Notes: generated by a model not told the origin, from the sequence alone. 24,000 nucleotides of DNA from Acidimicrobiales bacterium (GCA_036260075.1 DATAAM010000223.1:1489-25488), one strand, 5' to 3'. Counted from the first letter of the stretch, positions 4,721 to 17,840 are shown. Numbers and translations: made by a program.

Positions 4721-5332
4721 ATGAGCGCCTTCGAGTTGAGGACCCGGTGCTACGGTCGCCGCTCGATGACCGTCGACGAGGCCCGAGAACGCCTGGTTTC
4801 GGTCCTGTCGCGAGGGATGAGCACGGCGGTCGGCGAGCCGTTCACGCTCAGCTCCGGAGCCCGCAGTTGGGTCGTGTTCGACTGCGCCGACGCCATCTGC
4901 GACGACGACACCCTCGGCTTCGTCGTCTCCTACCTGCTCGACCACGTCGACGTGGACTGCGACGCGGTGGGCGGGCCCGCCCTCGGTGCCGGGCCCCTCG
5001 TCTACGGCGCGGGCGCGGTGGCGGGACGGCGTTGCTTCCTGGTGCGAGAGGCGCAGAAGGGGCACGGGGTCGGAGGCTGGTTCAAAGGGCACTTCCGACC
5101 GGGCGACCGGGTGCTGGTGGTGGAGGACGTGGTGACCACCGGCGACTCGCTGCTCAAGGCCATGCGCGTGGTGCGCGACCAGGGCGGGGTCGTGGTCGGT
5201 GCGGCCACGCTGATCGACCGGGGCGATATCACCGCCGCCAAGGTCGCCGAGGAGTTCGGCGTGCCCTACGTGCCGATGACGACGTACCGCGACTACGGCG
5301 TGGACCCCGTGGAAGCGGTGCCGTCGGCCTGA
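4721..5332 (+). CDS. Orotate phosphoribosyltransferase-like type I PRTase (PyrE family), chromosomal
   Basis: FTLSSG block, flexible-loop-like REAQKGHGVGGWFKG, PRPP loop VLVVEDVVTTGDS, LIDRG. Possible alternative start at ATG 4766 (MTVDEARERL). GC content matches the flanking core. Confidence 0.65.
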   Translation: MSAFELRTRCYGRRSMTVDEARERLVSVLSRGMSTAVGEPFTLSSGARSWVVFDCADAICDDDTLGFVVSYLLDHVDVDCDAVGGPALGAGPLVYGAGAVAGRRCFLVREAQKGHGVGGWFKGHFRPGDRVLVVEDVVTTGDSLLKAMRVVRDQGGVVVGAATLIDRGDITAAKVAEEFGVPYVPMTTYRDYGVDPVEAVPSA

Positions 5333-5338
5333 GCCGAG

Positions 5339-5343
5339 GCGGT
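5339..5343. repeat. Left copy of the 5-bp target-site duplication GCGGT
   Basis: gcggt directly abuts IR-L. An identical gcggt directly abuts IR-R at 12641-12645. Confidence 0.7.
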
Positions 5344-5359
5344 GGGCTACCGACAGAAC
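5344..5359. repeat. Left terminal inverted repeat (IR-L)
   Basis: gggctaccgacagaac. The reverse complement of 12625-12640 is gggctaccgacacaac. 15/16 identical, with the first 12 perfect. Confidence 0.75.
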
Positions 5360-5365
5360 TGTCCT

Positions 5366-5387
5366 GACGTGGGGTTACCCCAGCGTC
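5366..5387 (-). terminator. Hairpin downstream of the PRTase cassette
   Basis: gacgtgggg-tta-ccccagcgtc: a 9-bp stem with one bulge, located between the stop at 5428 and IR-L. No U-tract. Confidence 0.3.
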
Positions 5388-5427
5388 TTGCGGATCGGTT
5401 CCCCCCTCTGCTGGGTCGCGTTCCCAA

Positions 5428-6282
5428 CTACCCGCCGGGAACGGCTGCCTGGCGAGCCTTGGACTCAAGAGCTGCGAAGTCAGCATCACCGAGTTTGAGT
5501 ACCGCGTTCAGGTTCAAACGGTGCTCATCGAGCTTCGTTCGTGCAGACCCTTCGCTTCGCTCAACGAAGACGAACGCTTCACGAACGATGAAGCCTGCCT
5601 CCCGCGCTCGACTCGCGGTCTCCACTAGAAGCTCTCCATCAGTTCCGACGTCGTCCAGCAAGAGTCCTCGGCCGTGGGTAACGGCCGACTCGACGTATTG
5701 GCCGTCGAGGGGCGAATCACGAATAACCACCGAAGGCAGCTTCAAGATCTGGGCAACGGTCAGTCCGAGGATGGGGTTACCGGATTTCGGCAAGATAAGA
5801 GCGTGGTAATTTTTGACGATAATGTTCTCATTAATACTTTCAGCCAGGATCTCGGCTAGTACCTTAAGATGTGCTTCTGTCAGTACCGCTTCTCTGAGAT
5901 CTAGGGAGTAGCTAGCTTTTACAGCTCCACTTTTGCCCAACGTTTGAGGAGTGTCAGACTTCTTTAGATGAAGAAACATTACCCATTCAATGGGGCTCAC
6001 TTCGTTTGGTGTGGGGAAACCTTCCTTTGCAACCTGTTCTGGCGCGACATCTACGAAGTGCGATTTCTTCTCCGCCGGTGATTCCTCGGCTGCTTCGACC
6101 GCAGGTGGAGACACATCGCCGGTCCTGCGTCCCTGCAGGACCCCGTATAGAAATGCCAGAGCCCCCAACAACAACGAACCGCCCGCTAGCAACGGTTGAT
6201 CCTTGAGCATCACTGCGCCCAGGATCCCGCCGAGCGCGACGGGGAACGGGCCTCGCACCTTCTGCAACCATTGCCAGTCCAT
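5428..6282 (-). CDS. 2TM membrane-anchored protein with a divergent PRTase-fold C-terminal domain
   Basis: ATG 6282 is preceded by GAGGAA about 6 nt upstream; the track ORF begins at TTG 6348. Two hydrophobic helices: FPVALGGILGAVML and LLAGGSLLLGALAFLYGVL. PRTase core: ALILPKSGNPILGLTVAQILKLPSVVIR ... GLLLDDVGTDGELL ... FVFVERSEG. Confidence 0.7.
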   Translation of the reverse strand: MDWQWLQKVRGPFPVALGGILGAVMLKDQPLLAGGSLLLGALAFLYGVLQGRRTGDVSPPAVEAAEESPAEKKSHFVDVAPEQVAKEGFPTPNEVSPIEWVMFLHLKKSDTPQTLGKSGAVKASYSLDLREAVLTEAHLKVLAEILAESINENIIVKNYHALILPKSGNPILGLTVAQILKLPSVVIRDSPLDGQYVESAVTHGRGLLLDDVGTDGELLVETASRAREAGFIVREAFVFVERSEGSARTKLDEHRLNLNAVLKLGDADFAALESKARQAAVPGG

Positions 6283-6374
6283 GGGGGTTCCTCGTTCTGC
6301 GCGACCTGCGGCGGTACGGAGGAAGTCTAGACGGCCGAGTGCTAGCAAAGGTGACCAGTGGGGGGGCGGATATG

Positions 6375-6752
6375 CTAAATCTGATTCTCAGGTCTCGAAA
6401 GGACCTCGTAAATTTCTTCTCGCAGAAGGCGAGCCAGTCCAGCGCCCTCTTGGGCCGTGTTTGCCTCAAGCACCGCTTGCAGATGGCGCCTGAAAACTTC
6501 ATTCAGACTTGTAATTGCACCTTGTGGCAACGCCCCATGGCTGTCCCAGACGTCGCTGATGACGGCAAGCGCACGTGCAATCCCACTGTACCGAGCATCG
6601 CCAGAGTTGTCAGCTGCGTCCCAGCAGTAATTCTCCAGCTCCTGAACGGCCGGAGCAGACAGCAGGCCGTCAGTTATCAGTCGTTCAAGCGATGACGCGT
6701 CCATCCGGTACCGGTTCGATGCCCAAATCATCGTAGGTGATAAGTGGCTCAT
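6375..6752 (-). CDS. Hypothetical 125-aa protein, the middle gene of the PRTase cassette
   Basis: ORF in the low-GC segment, co-directional with and overlapping the 3' end of the upstream OPRT-like gene. Candidate starts are 6752 (GAGGGG upstream), 6731 and 6704. No family recognised. Confidence 0.5.
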   Translation of the reverse strand: MSHLSPTMIWASNRYRMDASSLERLITDGLLSAPAVQELENYCWDAADNSGDARYSGIARALAVISDVWDSHGALPQGAITSLNEVFRRHLQAVLEANTAQEGAGLARLLREEIYEVLSRPENQI

Positions 6753-7347
6753 AGACGCGAACCCCTCGTTCGCGCAGACGTTGACGGGTCGTTTCTCCGC
6801 GGTCGACCAGCGTGACTGCCATGACTACGTCGACTTGGAACGGTTCAAGAGCATCAAGCGCGTCGAGAATCGAGCGACCAGTCGTAGCAACGTCATCAAG
6901 GAGCAGTACTGGAAGACCGGGCGTGAGCGTCGCGCCCACGATGCGCTGACGCTTTCCGTGTAGCTTCTCGTCCTTCAGCACGGAGAACCAGAGCTTCTGA
7001 GCTGTAAAGGCAACAGCGTGCGCCAACGGATCCGCTCCGAGGGTCATGCCTCCAGCTGCGTCGAACTCCACGCCAGCCTGCTGGGTGAGCTCAAGGATCG
7101 CCTCGCCAACTCGCTGAAGGCAAGTGCCGTGAGCGAGAGCGCGTTTGGCATCGACGTAGTCGTGACTGAGATAGCCGGACGATAGTTCGAACGGCTCTGC
7201 TCGTCGCTCGTACCCCCACTTCGCCACCATGGCGATGATCGAATCTCGCAACTCGGACACGCGACTCAACTCCCGAGGCCCGCTCGGGCCACGGCGATCA
7301 GTGTAGGAGTTCTCCGGTTCGGTGTGGACACCGCTGAATCCTTGCAC
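6685..7347 (-). CDS. Orotate phosphoribosyltransferase-like type I PRTase (PyrE family), transposon-borne
   Basis: FELSSGYLSHDYVD, loop LKDEKLHGKRQRIVG, PRPP loop VLLLDDVATTGRS, LVDRG, C-terminus TYDDLGIEPV. The likely true start is GTG 7260 (GGGAG 9 nt upstream); the track start is GTG 7347. Confidence 0.75.
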   Translation of the reverse strand: MQGFSGVHTEPENSYTDRRGPSGPRELSRVSELRDSIIAMVAKWGYERRAEPFELSSGYLSHDYVDAKRALAHGTCLQRVGEAILELTQQAGVEFDAAGGMTLGADPLAHAVAFTAQKLWFSVLKDEKLHGKRQRIVGATLTPGLPVLLLDDVATTGRSILDALDALEPFQVDVVMAVTLVDRGETTRQRLRERGVRVYEPLITYDDLGIEPVPDGRVIA

Positions 7348-7402
7348 AGTCCGCGCCTTCCTTCTCGGGCAGGGCCCGCCAGTTCGGACTCTCAGGTCCT
7401 TG

Positions 7403-7447
7403 ACTCTGAACTCCAGACTTCAGAATCCGAAGTTCGAAGTTCAGAGT
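7403..7447. promoter_or_regulatory. Operator-like repeat cluster between the PRTase cassette and the wHTH gene
   Basis: 9-bp inverted repeat actctgaac (7403-7411) / gttcagagt (7439-7447). TTCAGA half-sites at 7419-7424 and 7440-7445, 21 bp apart. Tandem gaagttc x2 at 7429-7442. Confidence 0.5.
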
Positions 7448-7474
7448 ACGCTGGGCCCTGAGGAGGGAGGGTGG

Positions 7475-7789
7475 ATGGTCGGAGCGAAGAGCCGGGACCA
7501 AGTCCAAGCTCTTTCGAAGAGCGCTTTGGGCCGCGACCATCGATTGACCCTTGCGCGTGCGATCCTCGCCAGGGGCGACGACCTTTTCGATCTTGCCACG
7601 CTCGAAGAAGCAACGGGGGTGCCAGACGCGACCGTCTTCAGGGAGGTGGCCGAACTTCACGATCTTGGAGTTCTGAACAGGGTTGAGGATCGGAATCGAG
7701 TCTTCTACCACAGAGTGGACAGTCCCTTCTGGGCCTGGTGCCAAGAACTCCTCGACCGTGTTACTGGAGCCGACTCGTCGGTTCGCTGA
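7475..7789 (+). CDS. Small winged-helix (ArsR/MarR-like) transcriptional regulator
   Basis: ATG 7475 with AGGAGGGAGG at 7461-7470. HTH-like segment LATLEEATGVPDATVFREVAELHDLGVLNRVEDRNRVFYH. Divergent from the PRTase cassette. Confidence 0.65.
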   Translation: MVGAKSRDQVQALSKSALGRDHRLTLARAILARGDDLFDLATLEEATGVPDATVFREVAELHDLGVLNRVEDRNRVFYHRVDSPFWAWCQELLDRVTGADSSVR

Positions 7790-7822
7790 GTACATTGCAC
7801 TTGGCGATGCCTGTCCCGCCAC

Positions 7823-8026
7823 TCAACCGGCGTTTCGCTCTGCCCAGCGCACGATCTCCGAACGCAGCCAGAGCCTCGTACGACCGCCCCCACGCTCGAC
7901 GACCGGGCGGGGCATGTCGGCGTAGCGCTTTTGGTACGTGGAGACGCTGTTGCGGTGCGACAGACCGAGGAGCTCAGCGACCTCTTGCGCGTCGATCAGG
8001 TCCTCCGTGTTCACCTTCGGCGCCAC
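7823..8026 (-). CDS. Excisionase/AlpA/MerR-type small HTH DNA-binding protein
   Basis: LIDAQEVAELLGLSHRNSVSTYQKR ... RLWLRSEIVRWAE matches the Xis-family HTH pattern. GTG start at 8026, 6 nt after a TAGACT -10-like hexamer on the minus strand, which suggests a leaderless transcript. Confidence 0.65.
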   Translation of the reverse strand: MAPKVNTEDLIDAQEVAELLGLSHRNSVSTYQKRYADMPRPVVERGGGRTRLWLRSEIVRWAERNAG

Positions 8027-8044
8027 GCGGCCAGTCTACGAGCG

Positions 8045-8073
8045 TTGACAAACCTCGGGTGGATCCCTAGTCT
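8045..8073 (+). promoter_or_regulatory. Sigma-70/HrdB-like promoter for the 8154.. operon
   Basis: TTGACA (8045-8050), 17-nt spacer, TAGTCT (8068-8073). Confidence 0.45.
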
Positions 8074-8085
8074 ACGAACGTAGAC
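8070..8085. promoter_or_regulatory. Perfect 16-bp palindrome overlapping the -10 hexamer; probable operator
   Basis: gtctacgaacgtagac. The 9-mer agtctacga also occurs at 8033-8041 and 8069-8077. Confidence 0.45.
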
Positions 8086-8153
8086 ATACCAGGTGGCCGG
8101 GGCGCTGCGCGAACAGCCCCCGGCCTGGCCGATTCCTGCAAGGAGGAACCGAC

Positions 8154-8423
8154 GTGGCCGAGGCTACGACAGCGAAGGCACCGTCCCACGCGACCCGCAA
8201 GACGATCGTGCATGCGACCGACAGGGGACTGGAGCTCGAACAGGAAGTGGAGGCGTTCGCCGTCCACGCCAGTGAGGCGTTGGAGGCGTTCACCGAGGAC
8301 GTAGGACCGCTCAACCTCTCCGACAAGCGGTACGAGCTGGTCGCGGCTGCGTCCGGCCTGGCGGGCCTGTTCAACCTCGTGGAACGCATGAGGGAGACGC
8401 TGGACGGGGTGACGGCGGCATGA
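8154..8423 (+). CDS. Hypothetical 89-aa protein
   Basis: GTG 8154 with AGGAGG at 8141-8146. ATGA overlap with the next gene. Confidence 0.55.
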   Translation: MAEATTAKAPSHATRKTIVHATDRGLELEQEVEAFAVHASEALEAFTEDVGPLNLSDKRYELVAAASGLAGLFNLVERMRETLDGVTAA

Positions 8424-8647
8424 CGAGGTATCCCGGCATCCACGTCTTCACCGCTCGCATGCCCGTCGGCGAGTACGAGGCACTGAAGGCATTCGCCTAC
8501 TTCACCCGACGTCCGATCAACGACGTCGTCCTGACGGCTGTTCGGTCCTACCTGCGGCAGCAGGTGGCCGAGGACCACCTGAACGAAATGGTGGAGCAAC
8601 TGCGAGCGACGCTCCACGAGACGTTCGAAGCCCTCGGAGAGCGGTGA
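8420..8647 (+). CDS. Ribbon-helix-helix (CopG/Arc-like) protein
   Basis: ARMPVGEYEALKAFAYFTRRPINDVVLTAVRSYL fits the RHH strand-helix-helix pattern. About 40% identical over 40 aa (hand alignment) to the chromosomal ORF 20191..20421. Confidence 0.6.
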   Translation: MTRYPGIHVFTARMPVGEYEALKAFAYFTRRPINDVVLTAVRSYLRQQVAEDHLNEMVEQLRATLHETFEALGER

Positions 8648-8904
8648 TGGCACGCGCCGCATCGCCAAGGTTGCCGATCGACCCCCTGCTCCGGCTCTGC
8701 GACGGCAACGTCGGTCTTCTTGCAGAGGCGCTCCGGCGACCTCGTCGGGTCATCACGCGGTGGAAGACCCTCGGGTTGCCGCTCGTCCAAGCGGACAGAT
8801 GCGCCGTGGCGGTCGGGCACCACCCGGTCGATCTCTGGCCCGACTGGTACGAAGCGACCGAGGCTTGGGCCACACACCGGAGTCGACGGTGTCGGGCCGC
8901 GTAG
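8644..8904 (+). CDS. Small putative DNA-binding protein
   Basis: GTGATG overlap with the RHH stop. The segment VITRWKTLGLPLVQADRCAVAVGHHPVDLWPDW resembles small HTH proteins of actinobacterial mobile elements (from memory). Confidence 0.45.
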   Translation: MMARAASPRLPIDPLLRLCDGNVGLLAEALRRPRRVITRWKTLGLPLVQADRCAVAVGHHPVDLWPDWYEATEAWATHRSRRCRAA

Positions 8905-9015
8905 TTCGGGGCGAGATCCCGAGGGCGTTCGCTCGACGAGCAGCGCGATCTGCTGGTCGGCCTCCGCGCCCTGCGGAACTACGGGCCTGAAGCCGCCGAG
9001 GCGGTCGAGGCTGTC

Positions 9016-9204
9016 ATGGAGCTGGGTCTGATCCGGCGCCTGCTGCTGTCCTGGGAGTTGGCCGTCGAGCTGGCCGAGGCCGAGGGCAGGGATGGGCGGC
9101 AGGCCATGGTCGACCTGCTCGGTGCCGATGATGCCGAACTCATCGAGGCAGCGCTGTTCGACCCGGTTCCCCGGCTCGTCTGTCTCGACGGCGGGGCCGG
9201 ATGA
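9016..9204 (+). CDS. Hypothetical small acidic protein. Same frame as 8644..8904, separated only by a TAG at 8902-8904.
   Basis: The frame is open from 8905 and coding-like (SLDEQRDLLVGLRALRNYGPEAAEAV...), but the first canonical start is ATG 9016. Confidence 0.35.
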   Translation: MELGLIRRLLLSWELAVELAEAEGRDGRQAMVDLLGADDAELIEAALFDPVPRLVCLDGGAG

Positions 9205-9209
9205 CCCGC

Positions 9210-9338
9210 TCAGGCGACTCTGTGCTCGGCGAGGAACCGCTTGGCGGCGACGCGCAGGATGCCGACGATCGTGCGGTCCTCCGCCTCGGCGACAGCCCGA
9301 AGCTGGTCGTGCAGGTCGGCAGGCAGCCGAATAGTCAT
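9210..9338 (-). CDS. 42-aa ribbon-helix-helix protein
   Basis: MTIRLPADLHDQLRAVAEAEDRTIVGILRVAAKRFLAEHRVA is the C-terminal part of track ORF 9210..10433. It shows the RHH pattern and shares RLPAD with the other two RHH ORFs. The RBS is weak. Confidence 0.45.
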   Translation of the reverse strand: MTIRLPADLHDQLRAVAEAEDRTIVGILRVAAKRFLAEHRVA

Positions 9339-9818
9339 GGCTCGATCGGCTTGGTTCTTCTTCACCAATCGCGACGGTATCGCCGAGGCCCTACGGCAAC
9401 GCGGATCCGCCACATGGCTCGTACCTGCCCGGCACCATGTGGTTGCCCGCGGTACCGCAGTCGTCTGCGAGGGTCGGAAAGCAGTAGGGGGCCGCCCGCT
9501 CCGGAGGTATCCGGAGAAAATGGCCAGGACCGGGATGGCGACGACGTCCCCGGGAGCTCGGGAGCCCCGCTCCTGCGCGACGGAACGTGTGAGTTGGTTT
9601 CGTCGCGCAGGAGGATCAGGTTGGCTTCGCAGATCGAGCAGTTGGTTCTCGAGGTGGAGAACCCGAGCCGATGCCCGCATCCATCCGCTGTCACATGCCG
9701 GGACCGGCATGGCGTCCGACTGTGGAGTCGTGTCCTTGGAAGCGCGACAGGCGCGTTTGCTCGCGATCGCAGTTCTCCGCGTTGGGATGCGGGAGAGCCG
9801 TGGCGGGACCGAGACACT

Positions 9819-10723
9819 GTGACACGCCGGATCAGCCGGTTCGTGCCGAGCAGTGTGCCGCCCGACGTCTGGGAGCGAATCGCTCCGTCCGTCCGACGAG
9901 CGGCCGAACGAGCCGGCTCTACGCCCTACAGCGCCACCGCTCTGGCTTCGGTCACCGCCCAGCTCCTCCACTGGTGCGACCGGGAGGGGCTCCCGCTGCG
10001 CGATGAGGTCGTGCTGCACCCCGACACGGTCGACCGCTTCATTGCGGCTGGGTGCGGTCATCTCCGGCACGGGACTCGCCTCAACTATCAGAGCCAGCTT
10101 CGCCGAGTGGGCGAGCTTCTCGTCGGTCCTCCGCTCTATCCGACCCGCAGATATTCGACCGGCTCCTCCGACCCGATCGCTCCGTACACGGAGGAGGAGG
10201 TCGCCGCCCTCCTCGGGTGGGCACGCGGGCTGAGCACGGCCCGCATGCGGCAGAACTCGCTCGTCCTCCTCTCCTTCGGACTCGGTGTGGGCCTGACCAG
10301 CCGGGAACTGAATGCGCTCGTCGGCACCGACGTCGCCTCGGACGATGACGGAGTCCTGGTGCACGTCGTCACAGGGCGTCGCCGCCGTGTCGTTCGCGTG
10401 CTTCGCAGGTGGGAAGAGCATGTCCACACGCACGCCGAACGAGTCGGCGGGAAGGGGTATTCCTGCCGGGCCGTGATCGTGTCGGCCGCAAGGACATCAG
10501 CCGCTTCGTGGAGGGTTGTCCTCGGTCGGATGCCCCGAAGCTGAGCGTCCAGCGTCTTCGAGTCACTTGGATCGTCGGCCATCTGTTGGCGGGTACGCCG
10601 TTGCCGGTTCTCGAAGCCGCGGCCGGGGCCACGGCGTCGCAACTGGCCGCCTACGCGGCGTACATCCCCGAACCCGACGAGGCCACGGCGAACCACTGGT
10701 TGCGGGAGGCGACCTCGCCGTGA
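9819..10723 (+). pseudogene. Tyrosine-recombinase (phage-integrase fold)-like gene, apparently frameshifted
   Basis: Frame 0 gives YTEEEVAALLGWA...GLGVGLTSRELNALVGTDV...VLVHVVTGRRRRVV. The homology-like sequence then continues in frame 2: VFLPGRDRVGRKDISRFVEG...LSVQRLRVTWIVGHLLAGTPLPVLEAAAG...YAAYI. The switch lies at the G-run 10454-10457. The proposed start at GTG 9819 is uncertain. Confidence 0.5.
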
Positions 10724-12480
10724 CCTTGCCCACCCTCGCGCCCATGGCAATGCCCTCGTACGAGGACTTGCCTCGGCGCGGCGGGTGGACATTCGACGAC
10801 GACACCGTCCGTTGGGCGATGCGAGTGATCGACCGTTCTGGCTTGGTCGAGCAGTTGGACACATGGGCGGCTGACGCACGCCGGGGACCGGGAGGCCGAC
10901 CTGAGACGTTTCCACGGCGGGCCTTGCTCGTTGCCATAGCACTGGCCGCTCGGGAAGGACTGGCGATGCAGGCATTGGTGTTCTGCAACGTCCTCTTCCG
11001 TCACATCGGGCCGACCATGCGCGCCGAGTTGCGGGTTCCCAATCCGCCGTCGGAATCCGATGGGCATGGCTGGAAGGCCGTGTATCGCAACGTCAGGACG
11101 CGCCTTCATGGGATCCTCGAACTGGTCGACCCTTCGCCGTACCCCAAGAACCGCCGACTGGACGCAGCGGCGTTCGCAGAGCGCACGAAGGATCTTTCGG
11201 CCGACGAGATCGCGGAGCGCATCGAGAAGCTCACGTGGCTGGCGAACCGGATCATCGAGGCAAGCCTGCGAGAGTGCCCGGCGGAGATCCTCGACAACTG
11301 GGACGGCTCGATCGGACTGGATGCCACCCCGATCCGACTGTACGCCCGTCCTGAGAGGAGAGCCCGCGGTCGGCGAGGCAAGCAGCTGGTGGAGGTTCAT
11401 TCGTCCGATCCCGATGGGGCCTGGTACATGCGCGAGCACGATCACCGGGATCCCGATACGCAGCCCGACACGGGAGCGAAGAAGGGGAAGCAGGTCGCCA
11501 AGGCGTTCTGGGCGCAGGAGGCCACGATCGCCACGGCCAGTTCGAGCGATCCGCGAGCCAAGAGGAGCTTCCCCAAGCTGGCTGTCGGCATGGCTTCGCT
11601 TCACAAGCCGGGCCACCATCCCGACGAACACGGCATCCGTGCCTTGGCGAGCATCAAACAGCGCGGCCACCCCAGCGGCCTCCTTGCCGCCGATCGGGCC
11701 TACACCAACTCGAAGCCCGAGAACTTCCAACTGCCGGCTCGGGCCATGGGATACCGCCTGGTCCTCGACTACCGCGAGGATCAGCTCGGCATCCAGGGCT
11801 CGCATGCCGGAGCGCTCCAGATCGAAGGCGGATGGTCCTGTCCGTGCTTGCCGGAAGCGCTGGTGGATGCAACGGCCGACTTCCGTGCTGGTGGCATCAC
11901 CGAAGACGTGTGGCGTCAACGGCTCAGGGCACGGACGGCGTACCGGCTCCGGGAGAAGGAGCGACCCGACGCTGAAGGTCACGTTCGCCTCCAGTGTCCT
12001 GCCGCGGGACCGGCACCTACCTGCCGCTGCCCGTTGAAGCCCGCGTCCGTCTCCGATGCCACGGCCGGCAAGCCCCTCGTCCTCGTCACCGACGACGTGG
12101 CCCAGAACCCGCCTGCCATCTGTCGGCAGCAATCGGTGACCTTCCCCCCGGACGCCGGTGCCAAGTACCTCCAAGCGCTGGAATACGAGTCGCCCGACTG
12201 GCGCCGGGCCTACCCGACCCTGAGGAACTCCATCGAGGGCACGAGCGGCACGGCCAAGGACGGGGCCTACGAAGCTCTCGGCATCGCCGACAGGCGACGG
12301 ATCCGTGGCCAAGCGGCCCAAACCCTGTTCGTCGCCTTCCTGTTGTTCGGGACGAACCTGCGCATGATCGACAGCTTTCGGGCCCAGGCAAAGGCGGAGG
12401 AGGACGGCGTCATGCGCTTGCCCCGAAAGCGGCGACGGAAGACCCGGCCTCTGTCCGACCACCTGCCGACGACGATCTGA
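10720..12480 (+). CDS. DDE transposase, IS4-superfamily-like (IS4/IS1634/IS1380-type)
   Basis: GTG 10720 overlaps the upstream stop as GTGA. N-terminal GRPETFPRRALLVAIALA (InsH-N-like). Candidate catalytic residues are the D in IGLDATPI (aa ~201), the D in LLAADRAYT (aa ~325) and the E in YPTLRNSIEGTSGTAKD (aa ~506, a Y-R-E-K-like signature), followed by FLLFGTNLRMI. Confidence 0.75.
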   Translation: MTLPTLAPMAMPSYEDLPRRGGWTFDDDTVRWAMRVIDRSGLVEQLDTWAADARRGPGGRPETFPRRALLVAIALAAREGLAMQALVFCNVLFRHIGPTMRAELRVPNPPSESDGHGWKAVYRNVRTRLHGILELVDPSPYPKNRRLDAAAFAERTKDLSADEIAERIEKLTWLANRIIEASLRECPAEILDNWDGSIGLDATPIRLYARPERRARGRRGKQLVEVHSSDPDGAWYMREHDHRDPDTQPDTGAKKGKQVAKAFWAQEATIATASSSDPRAKRSFPKLAVGMASLHKPGHHPDEHGIRALASIKQRGHPSGLLAADRAYTNSKPENFQLPARAMGYRLVLDYREDQLGIQGSHAGALQIEGGWSCPCLPEALVDATADFRAGGITEDVWRQRLRARTAYRLREKERPDAEGHVRLQCPAAGPAPTCRCPLKPASVSDATAGKPLVLVTDDVAQNPPAICRQQSVTFPPDAGAKYLQALEYESPDWRRAYPTLRNSIEGTSGTAKDGAYEALGIADRRRIRGQAAQTLFVAFLLFGTNLRMIDSFRAQAKAEEDGVMRLPRKRRRKTRPLSDHLPTTI

Positions 12481-12624
12481 GCCTCACGAGCCGAGGTACC
12501 GGCCTTCAGAGGCGTCCTGTCGAGCAGGTCAGAACGGCCTTGAAGGTGCCTCTGGGCATCCTCCGACCAGATCAGGGGCCTGCTGGCCACCGATTCTCCG
12601 GGTTTTGTCGGCGGGAGCCGCCCG

Positions 12625-12640
12625 GTTGTGTCGGTAGCCC
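12625..12640. repeat. Right terminal inverted repeat (IR-R)
   Basis: gttgtgtcggtagccc is the reverse complement of IR-L with one mismatch. Confidence 0.75.
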
Positions 12641-12644
12641 GCGG

Positions 12645-12645
<1 letters not shown>
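12641..12645. repeat. Right copy of the 5-bp target-site duplication GCGGT; overlaps the tRNA 3' terminus
   Basis: gcggt is identical to 5339-5343. On the minus strand it reads ACCGC, i.e. the discriminator A plus CC of the tRNA and 2 further nt. Confidence 0.7.
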
Positions 12646-12728
<83 letters not shown>

Positions 12729-12817: not shown

Positions 12818-13474
12818 ATGGGACTCCAGCAGTTCGAGCGGCGCCTCGAACGCCTCGTCGAGGGCGTCTTCGCCAAGGCCTTTCGCAGCGGGCTCCAGCC
12901 CGTGGAGGTGGGTCGCCGTCTGACTCGGGAGATGGACCTGCACCGCACGGTCGGCGTGCGCGGCGTGCTCGTGCCCAACTGGTTCGAGATCGCGCTCGCC
13001 CCCGCCGACCACGAGCGGTTCGCCCCCTTCGAGGAGAGCCTGCTGCGCGACCTGGCCGACATGGCCCGCCAGCACGCCCGCGACGAGGGCTACTCGTTCG
13101 TCGGGCCCGTCGAGATCGCGCTCGAGCCGGATCCCTCGCTCACGCCCGGCATGTTCCTCGTCTCCTCCGAGGTGCGGGAGGGGGCGGGCGGCGGCGAGCC
13201 CGGGTCCCTCGTGCTGCCCGACGGCACCCGCGTGGAGGTCACCGGCGACCCCGTCACCATCGGCCGCCTGCCCGACTGCGACATCGTGCTCGACGACCGC
13301 AACGTGAGCCGTCGCCACGCCGAGGTGCGCCGCACGCCCAACGGCTTCACCGTGGTCGACCTCGACTCCACCAACGGCACGCGGGTCAACGGAGCGGGCG
13401 TCAAGGAGCGCCGCCTGGCCGACGGCGACAGCATCACGGTCGGGACCACCACCATTCGGTTCGAAGCCTCCTAG
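12818..13474 (+). CDS. fhaA: FhaA-like protein (DUF3662 N-terminal domain plus C-terminal FHA domain)
   Basis: MGLQQFERRLERLVEGVFAKAF N-terminus. FHA block VTIGRLPDCDIVLDDRNVSRRHAEV...STNGTRVNG. Synteny with fhaB-pstP-rodA-pbpA-pknB. Confidence 0.85.
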   Translation: MGLQQFERRLERLVEGVFAKAFRSGLQPVEVGRRLTREMDLHRTVGVRGVLVPNWFEIALAPADHERFAPFEESLLRDLADMARQHARDEGYSFVGPVEIALEPDPSLTPGMFLVSSEVREGAGGGEPGSLVLPDGTRVEVTGDPVTIGRLPDCDIVLDDRNVSRRHAEVRRTPNGFTVVDLDSTNGTRVNGAGVKERRLADGDSITVGTTTIRFEAS

Positions 13475-13484
13475 AGGGAGCGCG

Positions 13485-13922
13485 ATGCCCGAGTCGCTGC
13501 TCACGATCCTGAAGTTCCTCTTCCTGGCCCTGGTGTGGCTGTTCTTCGCCCGCGTGCTGCGGGCGGTGTGGGCCGAGCTCTCGCCCGCCGCCGAGCCCGC
13601 CCCCGCCGTCGGCGGCGGCCGTGGCGGAGTGGCCCGCCTGAAGGTGGTCGAGCCCGCCGACAAGCGGGGCCTCGCCTTCGACGTGGGCGACGAGCTCACG
13701 GTGGGCCGGGCGGGTGGCTGCCAGATCGCGCTGGAGGACGACAAGACCGTCTCCCAGCTCCACGCCCGCGTCTTCAGGGGGGCGGAGGGGCGCGTCTACG
13801 TCGAGGATCTCGGGTCGACCAACGGCACCTACCTCAACGCCAAGAAGCTCACCGGTCCCGCCGCCCTCCACCGAGGCGACCGCCTCCAGGTCGGCCGCAC
13901 GGTGCTGGAGGCCACCAAGTGA
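13485..13922 (+). CDS. fhaB: FhaB/FipA-like membrane-anchored FHA-domain protein
   Basis: N-terminal TM helix LLTILKFLFLALVWLFFA. FHA block LTVGRAGGCQIALEDDKTVSQLHARV...STNGTYLN. RBS agagggag. Confidence 0.85.
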   Translation: MPESLLTILKFLFLALVWLFFARVLRAVWAELSPAAEPAPAVGGGRGGVARLKVVEPADKRGLAFDVGDELTVGRAGGCQIALEDDKTVSQLHARVFRGAEGRVYVEDLGSTNGTYLNAKKLTGPAALHRGDRLQVGRTVLEATK

Positions 13923-15094
13923 CCCGCCTGCGCGCCGGCGCCGCCACCGACGTGGGGCGCGTGCGGAAGAACAACGAGGACAGCCTGCTCGTCTCCTCGC
14001 CGCTGTTCGCCGTCGCCGACGGCATGGGCGGCCATGCCGCGGGCGAGGTGGCCTCGAACATCGCGGTCGAGACGTTGGCCCAGCGCTTCGAGGCCGACCA
14101 CAGCGCCAATGGCCTGGCCGAGGCCGTGCGCGCCGCCAACCGTGCGGTGTGGGAGCGGGCACAGGCCGACCACGGCCTTCGCGGCATGGGCACCACGATC
14201 ACGGCCGTGGCGCTGGTGGAGGACGGCGACGACGAGGTGCTGGCCGTCGTCAACGTGGGCGACTCCCGCGCCTACCGCCTCCAGAACGGCGAGCTCGAAC
14301 AGCTCACCGAAGACCACAGCCTCGTCGAGGAGCTGCGCCGCAGCGGCCGCATCACCGACGACGAGGCCCGGTCCCACCCGCAGAAGCACGTCGTGACTCG
14401 CGCGCTCGGCATCGAGCCCGACGTCGACGTCGACTGCTTCCGAGTCCTGCCCTACAAGGGCGACCGCTTCCTCCTGGCCAGCGACGGCCTGTTCGACGAG
14501 GTGGACGACCCCGCCATCGCGTCCACCCTGCGGCGCGTGGCCGATCCCGACGAAGCGGCCCGCACGCTCGTCGACATGGCCAAGTCGGCCGGGGGCTCCG
14601 ACAACATCACCGTGGTGGTCGTCGACGTCACCGACGACGGCGACCGCGCCGCCAAGGCCTCGGCAGCCATCGAGGACGAGGACACACCGGCCGTCGTGCG
14701 GGCGTTGGCCCAGCGGGCCCGCGCCGTGAAGCGGCCCAGGCGGCTCACGCTCCGCGTGGCGCTCTTCGTCAGCGTCGTCCTGCTCGTGCTCCTCGGCGCC
14801 GTGGCCGCCGTGGGCGTGTTCGCCCGAGGCGCCTACTTCGTCGGCCTCGACGGCGACGAGGTGGTGATCTTCCGCGGTCGCCCCGGCGGGCTGCTGTGGT
14901 TCGACCCCACCGTGGAGGTGCGCACCGGCATCCCGGTCGAAGACGTGCCCGCCGCCCGCGTCGACGCCGTCCGGGCGGGCAAGGAGGAGCCCAGCCTGGG
15001 CGCCGCCCGGCGCTACGTCGAGAACCTGCAGGAACAGGCCCCCACGGCCACGACGACGACGTCGTCCACCGCACCCCCCACGTCGGCACCGTGA
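13919..15094 (+). CDS. pstP: PP2C-family Ser/Thr phosphatase with a C-terminal TM and extracellular segment
   Basis: GTG 13919 overlaps the fhaB stop as GTGA. RVRKNNEDS, ADGMGGHAAGEVAS, GSDNITVVVV. TM helix LRVALFVSVVLLVLLGAVAAVGVFA. Confidence 0.9.
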   Translation: MTRLRAGAATDVGRVRKNNEDSLLVSSPLFAVADGMGGHAAGEVASNIAVETLAQRFEADHSANGLAEAVRAANRAVWERAQADHGLRGMGTTITAVALVEDGDDEVLAVVNVGDSRAYRLQNGELEQLTEDHSLVEELRRSGRITDDEARSHPQKHVVTRALGIEPDVDVDCFRVLPYKGDRFLLASDGLFDEVDDPAIASTLRRVADPDEAARTLVDMAKSAGGSDNITVVVVDVTDDGDRAAKASAAIEDEDTPAVVRALAQRARAVKRPRRLTLRVALFVSVVLLVLLGAVAAVGVFARGAYFVGLDGDEVVIFRGRPGGLLWFDPTVEVRTGIPVEDVPAARVDAVRAGKEEPSLGAARRYVENLQEQAPTATTTTSSTAPPTSAP

Positions 15095-16392
15095 GGCGCG
15101 CCGCCCGTCGCGACACCGAGCTGGGGCTGCTCGTGATGGTCGCGCTCGTGACGGTGGGCGCCTACGCCCTGGCCAGCCTGGGCAAGAGCGCCTCCCTCCC
15201 GGTCGACATCGGTCCGTTCCTCGCCGTCATCCTCGGCCTCCTCCTGGCCGCCCACGTGGCCGTGCGCAGGCTGGCGCCGGGCGCCGACGCCGTGCTTCTG
15301 CCGCTGGCCGGGCTCCTCAACGGCATCGGCTATGTGTTCATCGCCCGCCTCGACAACGACCTCGCAGGCCTCCAGGCCACGTGGACCGCCCTGTCGGTGG
15401 TCGCGTTCGTCGGCACCCTGGTCGTGGTCCGGCGCGTGCGCGACCTGGAGCCGTACCGCTACACGTTCATGCTCCTGGGCATCGGCCTGCTGCTGCTCCC
15501 GCTGGCGCCCGGCATCGGCCGCGTCATCAACGGGGCCCGCCTGTGGGTGAGCCTCGGTCCGATCACCTTCCAGCCCGGCGAGCTCGCCAAGGTGGCGCTC
15601 GCCGTCTTCTTCGCCGCCTACCTGGTGGAGAAGCGGGAGCTGCTGGCCGAGCTGCGCCTGACCCGAGGCCGCCTCCCCAGCGTGCGCATCATCGGCCCGC
15701 TGCTCCTGGCGTGGGGCTTCTCGCTGCTCGTCATGACTGCCGAGCGCGACCTCGGCTCGTCGCTCCTCTTCTTCGCCCTGTTCATCGGGATGGTGTGGAT
15801 CGCCACCGCCCGGGGCGAGTACCTGGCGCTCGGCGTGGTGCTCTTCGGGCTCGGGGCCACGTTCGCCTACACATCCTTCGGCCACGTGGCTGCCCGCGTG
15901 CAGGTGTGGATCGACCCGTGGTCCCGGGCCGCGGGCGCGGGCTACCAGCTCACGCAGAGCCTGTTCGCGCTCGGCACCGGCGGCTTCGGCGGCACCGGCA
16001 TCGGCCTCGGCAGCCCGGGCCGCATCCCCGCCGCCACCACCGACTTCATCTTCGCCGCGGTCGGAGAAGAGCTCGGCTTCCTCGGCACCGCCGCGATGAT
16101 CACCGCCTACCTGTTGATGGTGGGCGTGGGGCTGCGCATCGCCGTCCGCTCCGACCAGCCGTTCGAGAAGCTGCTCGCGGCCGGGCTCACCACCATCCTC
16201 GGCGTGCAGACGTTCATCATCGTGGGCGGCGTCACCCGCCTGGTCCCGCTGACCGGCATCACGCTGCCGTTCGTGTCCTACGGCGGCTCGTCGCTGGTGG
16301 CCAACTACGTGCTGCTGGCGCTGTTGCTGCGCATCTCCGACGACACCGCCCGCCGGGCCGTCAACCGGGCCACGGCCGAGGCGACGGCCTGA
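15091..16392 (+). CDS. rodA: SEDS-family peptidoglycan polymerase (FtsW/RodA)
   Basis: GTG 15091 overlaps the pstP stop. Polytopic membrane protein with FtsW/RodA-like blocks: INGARLWVSLGPITFQPGELAKV, TDFIFAAVGEELG, PLTGITLPFVSYGGSS. Confidence 0.9.
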   Translation: MRRAARRDTELGLLVMVALVTVGAYALASLGKSASLPVDIGPFLAVILGLLLAAHVAVRRLAPGADAVLLPLAGLLNGIGYVFIARLDNDLAGLQATWTALSVVAFVGTLVVVRRVRDLEPYRYTFMLLGIGLLLLPLAPGIGRVINGARLWVSLGPITFQPGELAKVALAVFFAAYLVEKRELLAELRLTRGRLPSVRIIGPLLLAWGFSLLVMTAERDLGSSLLFFALFIGMVWIATARGEYLALGVVLFGLGATFAYTSFGHVAARVQVWIDPWSRAAGAGYQLTQSLFALGTGGFGGTGIGLGSPGRIPAATTDFIFAAVGEELGFLGTAAMITAYLLMVGVGLRIAVRSDQPFEKLLAAGLTTILGVQTFIIVGGVTRLVPLTGITLPFVSYGGSSLVANYVLLALLLRISDDTARRAVNRATAEATA

Positions 16393-17840
16393 TGGACCCC
16401 CAGATCCGCCGCCTGGGCATCGTGCTGATGGCGCTGTTCGTGGCCCTCTTCATCCAGCTCAACAACATCCAGGTGCTGCAGGCCGACAAGCTGGCCGACG
16501 ACCCCCGCAACACGCGCAACGCCACCCGCGACTTCAGCCGCGACCGGGGCCAGGTCCTCAGCGCCGACGGAGCCGTGCTGGCCCGGTCGGTGCCCACCGA
16601 CGGGCCCTTCGAGCGCCTGCGCCAGTACCCCGAGCACGACCTGTTCGCGCACGTCACCGGGTACTTCTCGTTCACCTTCGGCAGCGACGGCGTGGAGCGC
16701 ACGTACAACAACGTGCTGGCCGGCCGCGACATGGAGATCCGCCGCCTGCGCGACATCCTCACAGACAGGGTGATCGTCAACGACGTCACACTGACGATCA
16801 CCAAGCGCGTGCAGCAGGTCGCCCGCGACGCGCTGGGCGACCGCAAGGGCGCCGTCGTCGCCCTCGACCCGACCACGGGCGCCGTGCTGGCGCTGTGGAG
16901 CTTCCCCTCGTACGACCCCGAACGGCTGTCGGCCCACGACCAGCAGGCGGTGCAGCAGGCCTGGGACGAGCTCACTGCCGACCCCGACCGGCCGATGCTG
17001 CCCCGCACGTACCGGCGGGCCTATCCGCCGGGATCGACCTTCAAGGTGGTCACGTCGGCCGCCGCGCTCGAGCGGGCGCCGGAGCTGGTGACCAAGGACT
17101 ACCCGCGCCTGCGCGCCCTCGACCTGCCGCAGACGAACAAGGACCTGCCCAACTTCGGCGGCTCGACCTGCGGCGGCCCCCTGCCCCAGCTCCTGCGGGT
17201 GTCGTGCAACACGGGATACGCGCAGATGGGCCTCGACCTCGGTGCCGACAAGCTCTCCGGCGAGGCCCACGAGTTCGGCTTCGGGCAGCGGCCGCCGTTC
17301 GACCTGCCCGCGGTGGCGAGGTCGGTCTTCCCGGAGGCGGAGGAGTTCGAGCGCGACCTCCCCGGCCTGGCCCAGTCGGCCATCGGCCAGCAGAACGTGG
17401 CCGCCACCCCGCTCGAGATGGCGCTGGTGGCGGCGGGCGTGGCCAACGGCGGCAAGATCATGAAGCCGCACGTGCTGGCCGACGTGCGCGACAGCGAGGG
17501 CAACGTGGTGCGCACCGCGCAGCCGGGCGAGTGGCTCACGGCCACGTCGCCGGAGGCCGCCGCCGCTCTGCGCGACATGATGGTCGCCGTCGTCAACGGC
17601 GGCACCGCCACCCGGGCCGCCGTGCCCGGCGTGCAGGTGGCGGCCAAGACCGGCACCGCCCAGACCACAGGCGACAACTCCCACGCGTGGATCGTGGCGT
17701 TCGCGCCCGCGGAGGCGCCGCGGGTGGCCGTCGCCGTCATCGTCGAGAGCCAGCCGGGCCTCGGCGACACCGTCACCGGCGGCCGCATCGCCGCCCCGAT
17801 CGCCCGGGCCGTCATCCAAGCGGCACTGGCCGGCCCGTAG
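16392..17840 (+). CDS. pbpA: Class B penicillin-binding protein (transpeptidase)
   Basis: ATG 16392 overlaps the rodA stop by 1 nt. N-terminal anchor. STFK (PGSTFKV), SCN, KTGT motifs. Confidence 0.9.
   Translation: MDPQIRRLGIVLMALFVALFIQLNNIQVLQADKLADDPRNTRNATRDFSRDRGQVLSADGAVLARSVPTDGPFERLRQYPEHDLFAHVTGYFSFTFGSDGVERTYNNVLAGRDMEIRRLRDILTDRVIVNDVTLTITKRVQQVARDALGDRKGAVVALDPTTGAVLALWSFPSYDPERLSAHDQQAVQQAWDELTADPDRPMLPRTYRRAYPPGSTFKVVTSAAALERAPELVTKDYPRLRALDLPQTNKDLPNFGGSTCGGPLPQLLRVSCNTGYAQMGLDLGADKLSGEAHEFGFGQRPPFDLPAVARSVFPEAEEFERDLPGLAQSAIGQQNVAATPLEMALVAAGVANGGKIMKPHVLADVRDSEGNVVRTAQPGEWLTATSPEAAAALRDMMVAVVNGGTATRAAVPGVQVAAKTGTAQTTGDNSHAWIVAFAPAEAPRVAVAVIVESQPGLGDTVTGGRIAAPIARAVIQAALAGP

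Follow-up and report, generated by a model that had tools for sequence, protein, structure and literature searches.

We analyzed a stretch of 24,000 nucleotides from an Acidimicrobiales bacterium (GCA_036260075.1, DATAAM010000223.1:1489-25488), hereafter called the window, in which a 7.3-kb segment (positions 5344-12640) with short terminal inverted repeats (TIRs) abuts a tRNA-Leu(CAG) gene and encodes, next to several passenger genes, a putative DDE transposase and, directly upstream of it, a second protein here called OrfA. The segment is best read as one copy of a large and unnamed family of two-gene DNA transposons with TIRs in Actinomycetota, and we hold it to be very probable that this is a DDE-type transposon family with specificity for tRNA 3' ends, of which the window contains a cargo-bearing copy.

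The left inverted repeat (IR), GGGCTACCGACAGAAC at 5344-5359, matches the reverse complement of 12625-12640, GGGCTACCGACACAAC, at 15 of 16 positions, and GCGGT stands immediately outside both repeats (5339-5343 and 12641-12645) as a target-site duplication (TSD). Both features had been given in a preliminary description of this DNA and could be read directly from the sequence, and the difference in composition noted there was also clear, with a G+C content of 0.52-0.69 inside the element and 0.72-0.78 in the flanks; being lower than that of the host, it points to a foreign origin. ARAGORN called the tRNA-Leu(CAG) gene as the sole tRNA gene of the window, with its 3' end abutting the right repeat. 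When the terminal 16-mer was searched for with up to two mismatches, the two ends were the only sites found in the 24 kb, with 0.01 expected from shuffled sequences. A repeat search returned 51 inverted pairs of similar quality in 8.4 kb, and the terminal pair is thus unexceptional when taken alone; it gains its significance from dozens of independent relatives in which termini, 5-bp flank rule and adjacency to a tRNA gene are found again. Reconstruction of the empty site gave ...CCTGAGCCGAG-GCGGT-GCGCGAGGAGGG..., with the stop codon of a chromosomal phosphoribosyltransferase (PRTase)-like gene 8-10 nt from the tRNA end, agreeing well with the earlier value of about 8 nt.

Read from the left end, third-position G+C (GC3) and lists of open reading frames (ORFs) gave a minus-strand trio, a divergent winged-helix gene, three small plus-strand ORFs, orfA and the transposase gene (Table 1). 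The second conserved gene, orfA, which is frameshifted here, had not been recognized in the preliminary description.

Table 1. Coordinates of the element, its target and its genes in the window, with the basis of each assignment
Feature	Position	Strand	Basis or remark
Left TSD copy, GCGGT	5339..5343	.	Identical to 12641-12645
Left terminal inverted repeat GGGCTACCGACAGAAC, with one CGACAGAAC box	5344..5359	+	Read directly; consensus GGGyyAnCGACAGAAC also at the left ends of relatives
Left subterminal region, motifs CTGAC and TCCC...(N~17)...TTCCC (putative binding sites or promoter)	5360..5432	+	By-eye alignment of 13 left ends; motifs common to relatives
Cargo: 306-aa protein, N-terminal hydrophobic segment and degenerate C-terminal PRTase-like domain	5428..6348	-	Weak NCBIfam pyrE match, E = 3e-6
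Cargo: 125-aa protein	6375..6752	-	ORF call; no Pfam, NCBIfam or PADLOC match
Cargo: 220-aa orotate-PRTase-like protein	6685..7347	-	PF00156, E = 1.7e-7; TIGR00336, 90.6 bits against a cut-off of 106.8 bits
Cargo: 155-aa winged-helix-type putative regulator	7322..7789	+	Weak MarR_2, E = 0.004; PADLOC PDC-M05A, E = 1.3e-5
Cargo: three small overlapping ORFs (8154-8423, 8420-8647, 8644-8904)	8154..8904	+	GC3 0.78-0.84; no Pfam, NCBIfam or PADLOC match
Palindrome upstream of orfA (17 nt, 94 %); arms contain CGACGGAAC and CGACGAAAC, which are terminal-box-like and stand head to head	9570..9613	.	This copy only
orfA, partner with a tyrosine-recombinase fold and degenerate active site; a 1-nt frameshift near 10457 splits it	9732..10723	+	tblastn in two frames; start approximate
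Putative transposase, 578 aa, RNase-H-fold DDE, unclassified family; D193, D317, E498; insertion domain with three invariant Cys	10744..12480	+	Alignment, model and profile search
Inner right-end box CGACAAAAC, lying 23 nt inward of the terminal box and repeating it directly	12602..12610	-	Two-box right end also in L003, L051, L018 and L035
Right terminal inverted repeat, GGGCTACCGACACAAC on the minus strand	12625..12640	-	Read directly
Right TSD copy, GCGGT	12641..12645	.	Reads ACCGC on the tRNA strand: discriminator A and 4 nt
Target tRNA-Leu(CAG), intact, followed by the fhaA-type cluster	12643..12728	-	ARAGORN

Ends, duplications and target sites across the family

The comparison covered 78 related loci (referred to by L numbers), taken from species-representative genomes, across which the same termini delimit the element. 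Where a genome has several copies, these define a repeated unit of 3.2-3.4 kb, independently of any motif, and the termini of this unit, GGGCyAACGACAGAAC and GTTCTGTCGGTAACCC, are those of the IRs in the window. A perfect 5-bp TSD was found for 25 of 36 IR pairs, with 18 distinct sequences, while the control using the adjacent (shifted) 5-mers gave 0/36. Copies with the same IRs but other 5-bp flanks, for which the preliminary description had proposed a search, were hence readily found. The three observations that it had listed as speaking against transposition were not made: the IRs recur at the ends of other copies, relatives carrying the same DNA without the IR and TSD structure were not seen, and ends and TSD, as family-wide features, are compatible with the transposase family.

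The ends are asymmetric throughout the family, the left having one CGACAGAAC box followed by a conserved TCCC...TTTCCC and the right having two direct boxes 23 nt apart, an arrangement that the window shares (12602 and 12625). Tandem arrays with identical junction 5-mers are common (L042, L016, L027, L045, L006, L007 and L026); repeated insertion into a regenerated site would give such junctions, which argues against target immunity. The array of L042 (3854-16516) consists of three tandem elements by a tRNA-His gene, with ATGGG at each junction. Its copies 2 and 3 (4,658 bp) are 99.9 % identical, and each holds a nested IS256-family element right after the left IR, flanked by a duplicated CGACAGAAC box, these nested elements being in opposite orientation in the two copies. 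The opposite orientations could result from inversion, from two independent hits on one box or from a long-read assembly artefact.

Nearly every locus whose sequence extended far enough has a tRNA gene on the opposite strand, at 2-4 nt from the right IR. The distance between the T-loop (7 nt) and the first element base was 17 nt at 40 of 45 unique tRNA-adjacent sites and 18 nt at four, the 17 nt being made up of T-stem, acceptor strand (7 nt), discriminator and 4 further nt. Duplication of the 5 bp therefore starts at the discriminator, and the tRNA is left untouched. The right, transposase-proximal end faces the tRNA 3' end, in a single orientation throughout. Adjacency to tRNA genes is the defining target specificity of the family, and the earlier placement of the insertion at the 3' end of tRNA-Leu thus proved to be anything but incidental.

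The closest relatives of the window copy, from Acidimicrobiia, sit at tRNA-Leu(CAG) next to fhaA, a site also used by more distant members in Kibdelosporangium, Saccharothrix, Planomonospora, Plantibacter and Agromyces, with tRNA-Leu(CAG)-fhaA synteny seen in 20 related loci from two classes. Streptomyces-type members are found at Leu(CAG) or Leu(GAG). A second clade, of compact and often multi-copy elements, uses tRNA genes for His, Ala (three anticodons), Ser, Met, Glu, Tyr, Arg, Pro, SeC and Leu(TAG), giving at least 14 isoacceptors as targets across the family, and copies that are ~99 % identical within one genome adjoin different tRNA genes. Six targets were 3' fragments of tRNA genes (T-arm and acceptor strand), being neither complete tRNA nor tmRNA genes, which implies that the 3'-terminal ~30 bp of DNA suffice and that a functional tRNA is not required. 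We also considered tmRNA or other RNA genes as uncalled targets, and found none using ARAGORN -m or Rfam.

Some sites departed from this picture. In L031 (6121-6160) and L063 (1545-1584) the element abuts a sequence that has no T-loop and shares only CCTCGGACAC with the 3' end of tRNA-Leu(GAG), hinting either that the acceptor-strand part alone suffices or that a tRNA fragment has decayed. Extra DNA between the end of tRNA-Leu and the right IR was seen as a 1.3-kb unrelated insert in L008 (11939-13252), in which a 14-nt repeat of the tRNA 3' end occurs beside a repeated TGTCGCGAGACATCG motif of the insert itself, as a second CCCCCTCGCCCAC copy in L060 (11863-11893) and as 5 extra nt in L015 (11937-11942); these may be other integrating elements or excision footprints.

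The putative transposase and its partner OrfA

Relatives of the 578-aa protein, at least 639 of them with ~600 aa among 5.8 billion proteins, are all annotated as 'hypothetical' and lack Pfam domains throughout. Among 1.84 billion representatives, a profile search gave 3,292 clusters at E <= 1e-3, 977 of them at E <= 1e-30, counted as 50 %-identity clusters and spanning Acidimicrobiia to Streptomyces. RefSeq/PGAP likewise labels both the transposase and the partner genes 'hypothetical protein', plasmid copies included. One such copy on a plasmid (L080), 30 % identical, has no tRNA gene and a disrupted right side, and was uninformative.

The residues D193, D317 and E498, as well as three Cys between the second Asp and the Glu, are invariant in an alignment of 35 members. 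In an AlphaFold model of the protein (predicted local distance difference test score, pLDDT, 87.5; predicted template modelling score, pTM, 0.86), D193 lies on strand 1 (190-198), D317 right behind strand 4 (313-316) and E498 within helix 484-505, with an insertion of ~130 residues preceding the E498 helix and a helical N-terminal region of ~180 residues, placements that indicate an RNase-H-fold DDE topology with an insertion domain. Foldseek comparison of the model with the PDB gave weak matches (E = 0.013-0.05), the top ones all being DDE transposases; the first six are P-element, piggyBac and Mos1 entries, with Metnase, RAG1 and Hermes further down the list.

Sequence libraries gave little for either the single protein or the 35-sequence profile: nothing usable was found in Pfam (for the protein even at E = 10), NCBIfam, PADLOC or PDB sequences, apart from a faint PF13751 signal in 5/35 members (best E = 0.048). 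Kinship with IS1380-like (DDE_Tnp_1_4) or IS186 transposases was tried with hhalign and rejected at a probability of 0.2 % each, and only close family members were among the 150 matches listed when a bridge to a known insertion sequence (IS) family was sought. The conserved Y490, R494, E498 and K505 form a Y-(3)-R-(3)-E-(6)-K pattern, one residue off the spacing of the IS4 'YREK' signature, Y-(2)-R-(3)-E-(6)-K. Given the invariant triad and the model, we read the protein as an unclassified family's DDE transposase, and file it neither under IS4 nor under Tn3. The DDE transposase of the preliminary description thus gained the invariant triad and a modelled RNase-H fold in its favour, but found no confirmation in sequence libraries and could not be demonstrably related to IS4 or Tn3.

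In 72 of 79 loci, across classes, the transposase gene is directly preceded by a homologue of orfA. No Pfam domain is present in relatives of OrfA, three of which carry the JGI name 'integrase'. We modelled the homologue P0122, 61 % identical to the window protein (pLDDT 81), and Foldseek matched this model to XerA, Tn1549 Int, Cre, XerH and IntI (E ~3e-7, probability 1.0), giving the two-domain fold of tyrosine recombinases, with a core-binding and a catalytic domain. The six catalytic positions were mapped against a XerD sequence whose own six residues were confirmed. Of the catalytic set R-K-H-R-H/W-Y, Arg-II alone is invariant. None of the sequences has the hairpin Lys, His-I or His-II/Trp; Arg-I is kept only in the multi-tRNA clade and variable in the clade of the window, and Streptomyces-type members have L, V or F in place of the nucleophilic Tyr. 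With most catalytic positions lost, OrfA is very unlikely to be an active recombinase.

The orfA frameshift of the window falls within GGCGGGAAGGGGTATTCC, where L003 and L051 are uninterrupted, as read directly at the junction. Frameshifted orfA genes also occur in L038, L045/L046, L049 and L050, including some recently duplicated copies, and several of the frameshifts sit in Nanopore-derived metagenome-assembled genomes (MAGs), in which errors are possible.

Passenger genes and neighbouring genes

The cargo of the window copy covers ~3.7 kb from the left IR region to orfA, and its genes are absent from every other fetched locus. The 306-aa protein has no Pfam or PADLOC match and a word-based search of 5.8 billion proteins returned only itself, making it an orphan. 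The search for a function of this cargo led to no assignment, the 306-aa protein being a transmembrane-PRTase orphan and the PADLOC matches weak. The orotate-PRTase-like cargo protein (6685-7347) is 34 % identical over its full length (E = 1e-25) to the product of the chromosomal PRTase-like gene at 4721-5332, which abuts the left IR; both fall under the pyrE equivalog cut-off, and related loci have nothing corresponding to the chromosomal gene in their left flanks. The palindrome upstream of orfA, which may be an operator or a terminator, has no equivalent in the matching region of L003. The tRNA gene is followed on its right side by the conserved actinobacterial FHA-domain cluster (12818-16400) with fhaA-like and fhaB-like genes, in which the ORF at 13535-15094 presumably encodes a PP2C-type phosphatase, according to our by-eye reading.

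The same layout, in the order left IR, cargo, orfA, transposase gene and right IR, with other cargo and perfect TSDs, was found in four relatives. The 9,975-bp element of L003, at tRNA-Leu(CAG) with the TSD TCGGT, carries a complete Pycsar anti-phage system (2420-4178; PycC E = 9e-91, PycTM E = 5e-20), that of L022 (8,233 bp) a PNP-type effector and a nested IS, that of L026 (10,983 bp) metabolic genes with nested ISL3 and IS21, and that of L064 (11,165 bp) a nested IS beside an RHS/phospholipase toxin. In L042 and L033, extra DNA first taken as candidate passenger genes turned out to be nested elements of the IS256 (L042) and IS3 (L033) families.

Almost all compact elements of the multi-tRNA clade have, just inside the left IR, a small gene for a Cys-rich DUF6788 protein (E = 1e-34), as in L051 (8691-9038, minus strand) and, at the equivalent position, in about 35 other loci. 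This gene is absent from the tRNA-Leu clades, including the window, and we found no paper mentioning DUF6788. As a speculation, it may be related to target range, possibly widening it.

Proposed mechanism, alternatives and relation to known systems

In the mechanism that we propose, the 578-aa DDE enzyme would bind the terminal boxes, cut the target with a 5-bp stagger from the discriminator and join the element ends to it. OrfA, as an inactivated tyrosine-recombinase fold, would no longer recombine, but would bind the T-arm/acceptor segment of the tRNA gene, which is the site used by classical tRNA-targeting integrases, and thereby position the transposase. The asymmetric ends, together with a protein on the T-arm/acceptor DNA, would set the orientation, and passenger genes would ride in the slot between the left IR and orfA. 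The weakest step is the role of OrfA as target selector, to which we give a little less than an even chance; it is suggested by the strict conservation of OrfA, by a fold that habitually reads tRNA 3' segments and by the precedent of TnsF from Tn6022, in which an inactivated tyrosine-recombinase domain was experimentally shown to select the transposon target (PMC10293859). Taken further, and quite tentatively, OrfA could be a domesticated dead descendant of a tRNA-targeting integrase that now serves as selector for an unrelated DDE transposase on nearly any tRNA gene (tRNA-Leu only in some clades), with single-nucleotide precision, the two proteins making up a minimal safe-harbour system independent of Tn7 and DUF6788 possibly widening its range.

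As for the window copy itself, the transposase ORF with its triad, the ends and the TSD are intact, while orfA carries a frameshift and the composition marks the DNA as foreign to the host. It is probably a non-autonomous or decaying copy and a fairly recent acquisition, unless the frameshift is an assembly error. Movement of the 7.3 kb as one unit is the simplest reading, since the same architecture recurs elsewhere.

Some points weigh against this overall interpretation. Junction searches and exact-protein look-ups found no empty site or excision product for the source genome, and the look-ups of three chromosomal neighbours and P0001 gave no sister contig on record. A candidate empty site on one metagenome contig (L079), matching the 25-mer junction, was rejected as a chance match with no flank homology and no tRNA gene. 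The tandem junctions of L042 all carry one 5-mer, and the matching GCGGT copies are thus no strict proof that the 7.3 kb moved as a unit. OrfA could equally well be an end-binding or regulatory factor, and its frameshift in the window could be an assembly error.

It is conceivable, if somewhat unlikely, that the transposase alone reads the tRNA end by way of its helical N-terminal domain, OrfA then being architectural, end-binding or regulatory, or the relic of a cointegrate resolvase. Intrinsic target preference is common among IS transposases, and the ~180 helical residues at the N-terminus would offer a reader; the tyrosine-recombinase fold is, however, the classic reader of tRNA 3' segments, and a dead selector of that fold has its experimental precedent in TnsF. 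The frameshifts of orfA in several copies, some recently duplicated, would fit a dispensable function, but the retention of OrfA directly upstream of the transposase across classes points to an essential role, and several of the frameshifts, coming from Nanopore-derived MAGs, are possibly errors. The presence of DUF6788 in the multi-tRNA clade could explain the difference in target range instead. We consider it improbable that the window copy is a dead and fixed relic of a mobile family, with its 7.3 kb perhaps arising by fusion or decay of tandem copies and not by unit transposition. Such a history is suggested by the frameshift in orfA, the one mismatch between the IRs and cargo genes that were found in no other locus, and matching TSDs would be expected also at the outer ends of the tandem arrays that are common in the family. 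The segment 5344-12640 nonetheless contains neither a second transposase or orfA remnant nor an internal IR, the same layout with other cargo and perfect TSDs recurs in L003, L022, L026 and L064, and with its transposase ORF and catalytic triad intact the copy could be complemented in trans.

A classical integrative island, in which an active OrfA integrase would recombine attP with the 3' end of tRNA-Leu and the IRs would be incidental, is highly improbable. Although the location at a tRNA 3' end, the integrase fold of OrfA and the three homologues named 'integrase' would suit it, four of six catalytic positions are missing in the clade of the window (Arg-I variable; Lys, His-I and His-II absent), the Tyr is lost as well in the Streptomyces-type clade, and identical element ends are found at at least 14 different tRNAs. 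Only 5 bp are duplicated, moreover, with a sequence that varies between sites, and no tRNA 3' segment is repeated at the far end as an attachment (att) core, which bears out the preliminary description both in its failure to find such a direct repeat and in its preference for transposition over integrase-mediated insertion. RNA-guided targeting, as with the bridge or seek RNAs of IS110 or in CRISPR-associated transposons, is just as improbable: the ends do contain 300-500 bp of conserved non-coding sequence that might encode a guide, but the longest match between an element and its own 35-nt target was 7-10 nt, equal to the shuffled expectation of ~9 nt, and single element lineages use many different tRNAs.

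The Tn7 family is the closest in function, and only in function, with a 5-bp TSD, asymmetric multi-box ends and insertion in one orientation at a fixed offset downstream of an intact conserved gene; tRNA genes are among its attachment sites, as in CRISPR-associated members that home to them, target selectors are of the TnsD/TniQ type or TnsF, and defence genes are frequent as cargo. The present elements, with only two proteins, nevertheless lack TnsB (rve), TnsA, TnsC (AAA+) and TniQ in any ORF, their ends start with GGG and not TGT, and their tandem arrays suggest no target immunity. With the IS4 clan (IS4, IS1380, IS1182 and IS5) they share a single putative DDE enzyme whose insertion domain falls between strand 5 and the catalytic helix, as well as TIRs and a TSD that are both short, but they differ in having no significant Pfam match, a second conserved gene, strict tRNA-end targeting and passenger genes. 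Islands of tyrosine integrases, including the AICEs (integrative and conjugative elements of actinomycetes), have the tRNA 3'-end address and the integrase fold of OrfA in common with this family, in which the OrfA site is degenerate, TIRs and a variable 5-bp TSD are present and insertion takes place outside the tRNA, not within its 3' part, with no att core repeat.

Some Tn3-family elements have a tyrosine recombinase (TnpI or TnpS) beside the transposase, and IRs starting with GGG. The likeness covers the 5-bp TSD and the GGG-starting IRs; Tn3 elements differ by a TnpA of ~1,000 aa with its own Pfam family (DDE_Tnp_Tn3), IRs of 38 bp, an active resolvase and no tRNA targeting, as opposed to 578 aa, 16-nt IRs and a degenerate OrfA here. 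Casposons, which use Cas1 and PolB and have longer TSDs, are reported to insert at tRNA 3' ends, tRNA-Leu included. [quoted passage not shown] Casposons and Dada thus resemble the present family as TIR transposons with sequence-specific insertion at tRNA genes, but neither has a partner with a tyrosine-recombinase fold.

We found no earlier description of such a transposon family in the literature, with ISfinder not being part of the comparison. To our knowledge, site-specific DDE transposition beside tRNA genes in prokaryotes has essentially only been described for the multi-protein Tn7 family, the Cas1 casposons being tRNA-adjacent as well. We rate the element as a site-specific DDE transposon in which transposase family, partner and targeting geometry are all new. 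Such an element would do the job of the multi-protein Tn7 with no more than two proteins and ends of 16 nt, at nucleotide accuracy, carrying defence and toxin cargo, while being invisible to Pfam, NCBIfam and PGAP. It would add a new IS or transposon family to annotation resources, would explain those tRNA-adjacent islands of Actinomycetota that have no functional integrase, and would be the second independent case of a tyrosine-recombinase fold recruited as a transposon accessory. It is also a candidate for a compact tool for safe-harbour DNA insertion in high-GC Gram-positive bacteria.

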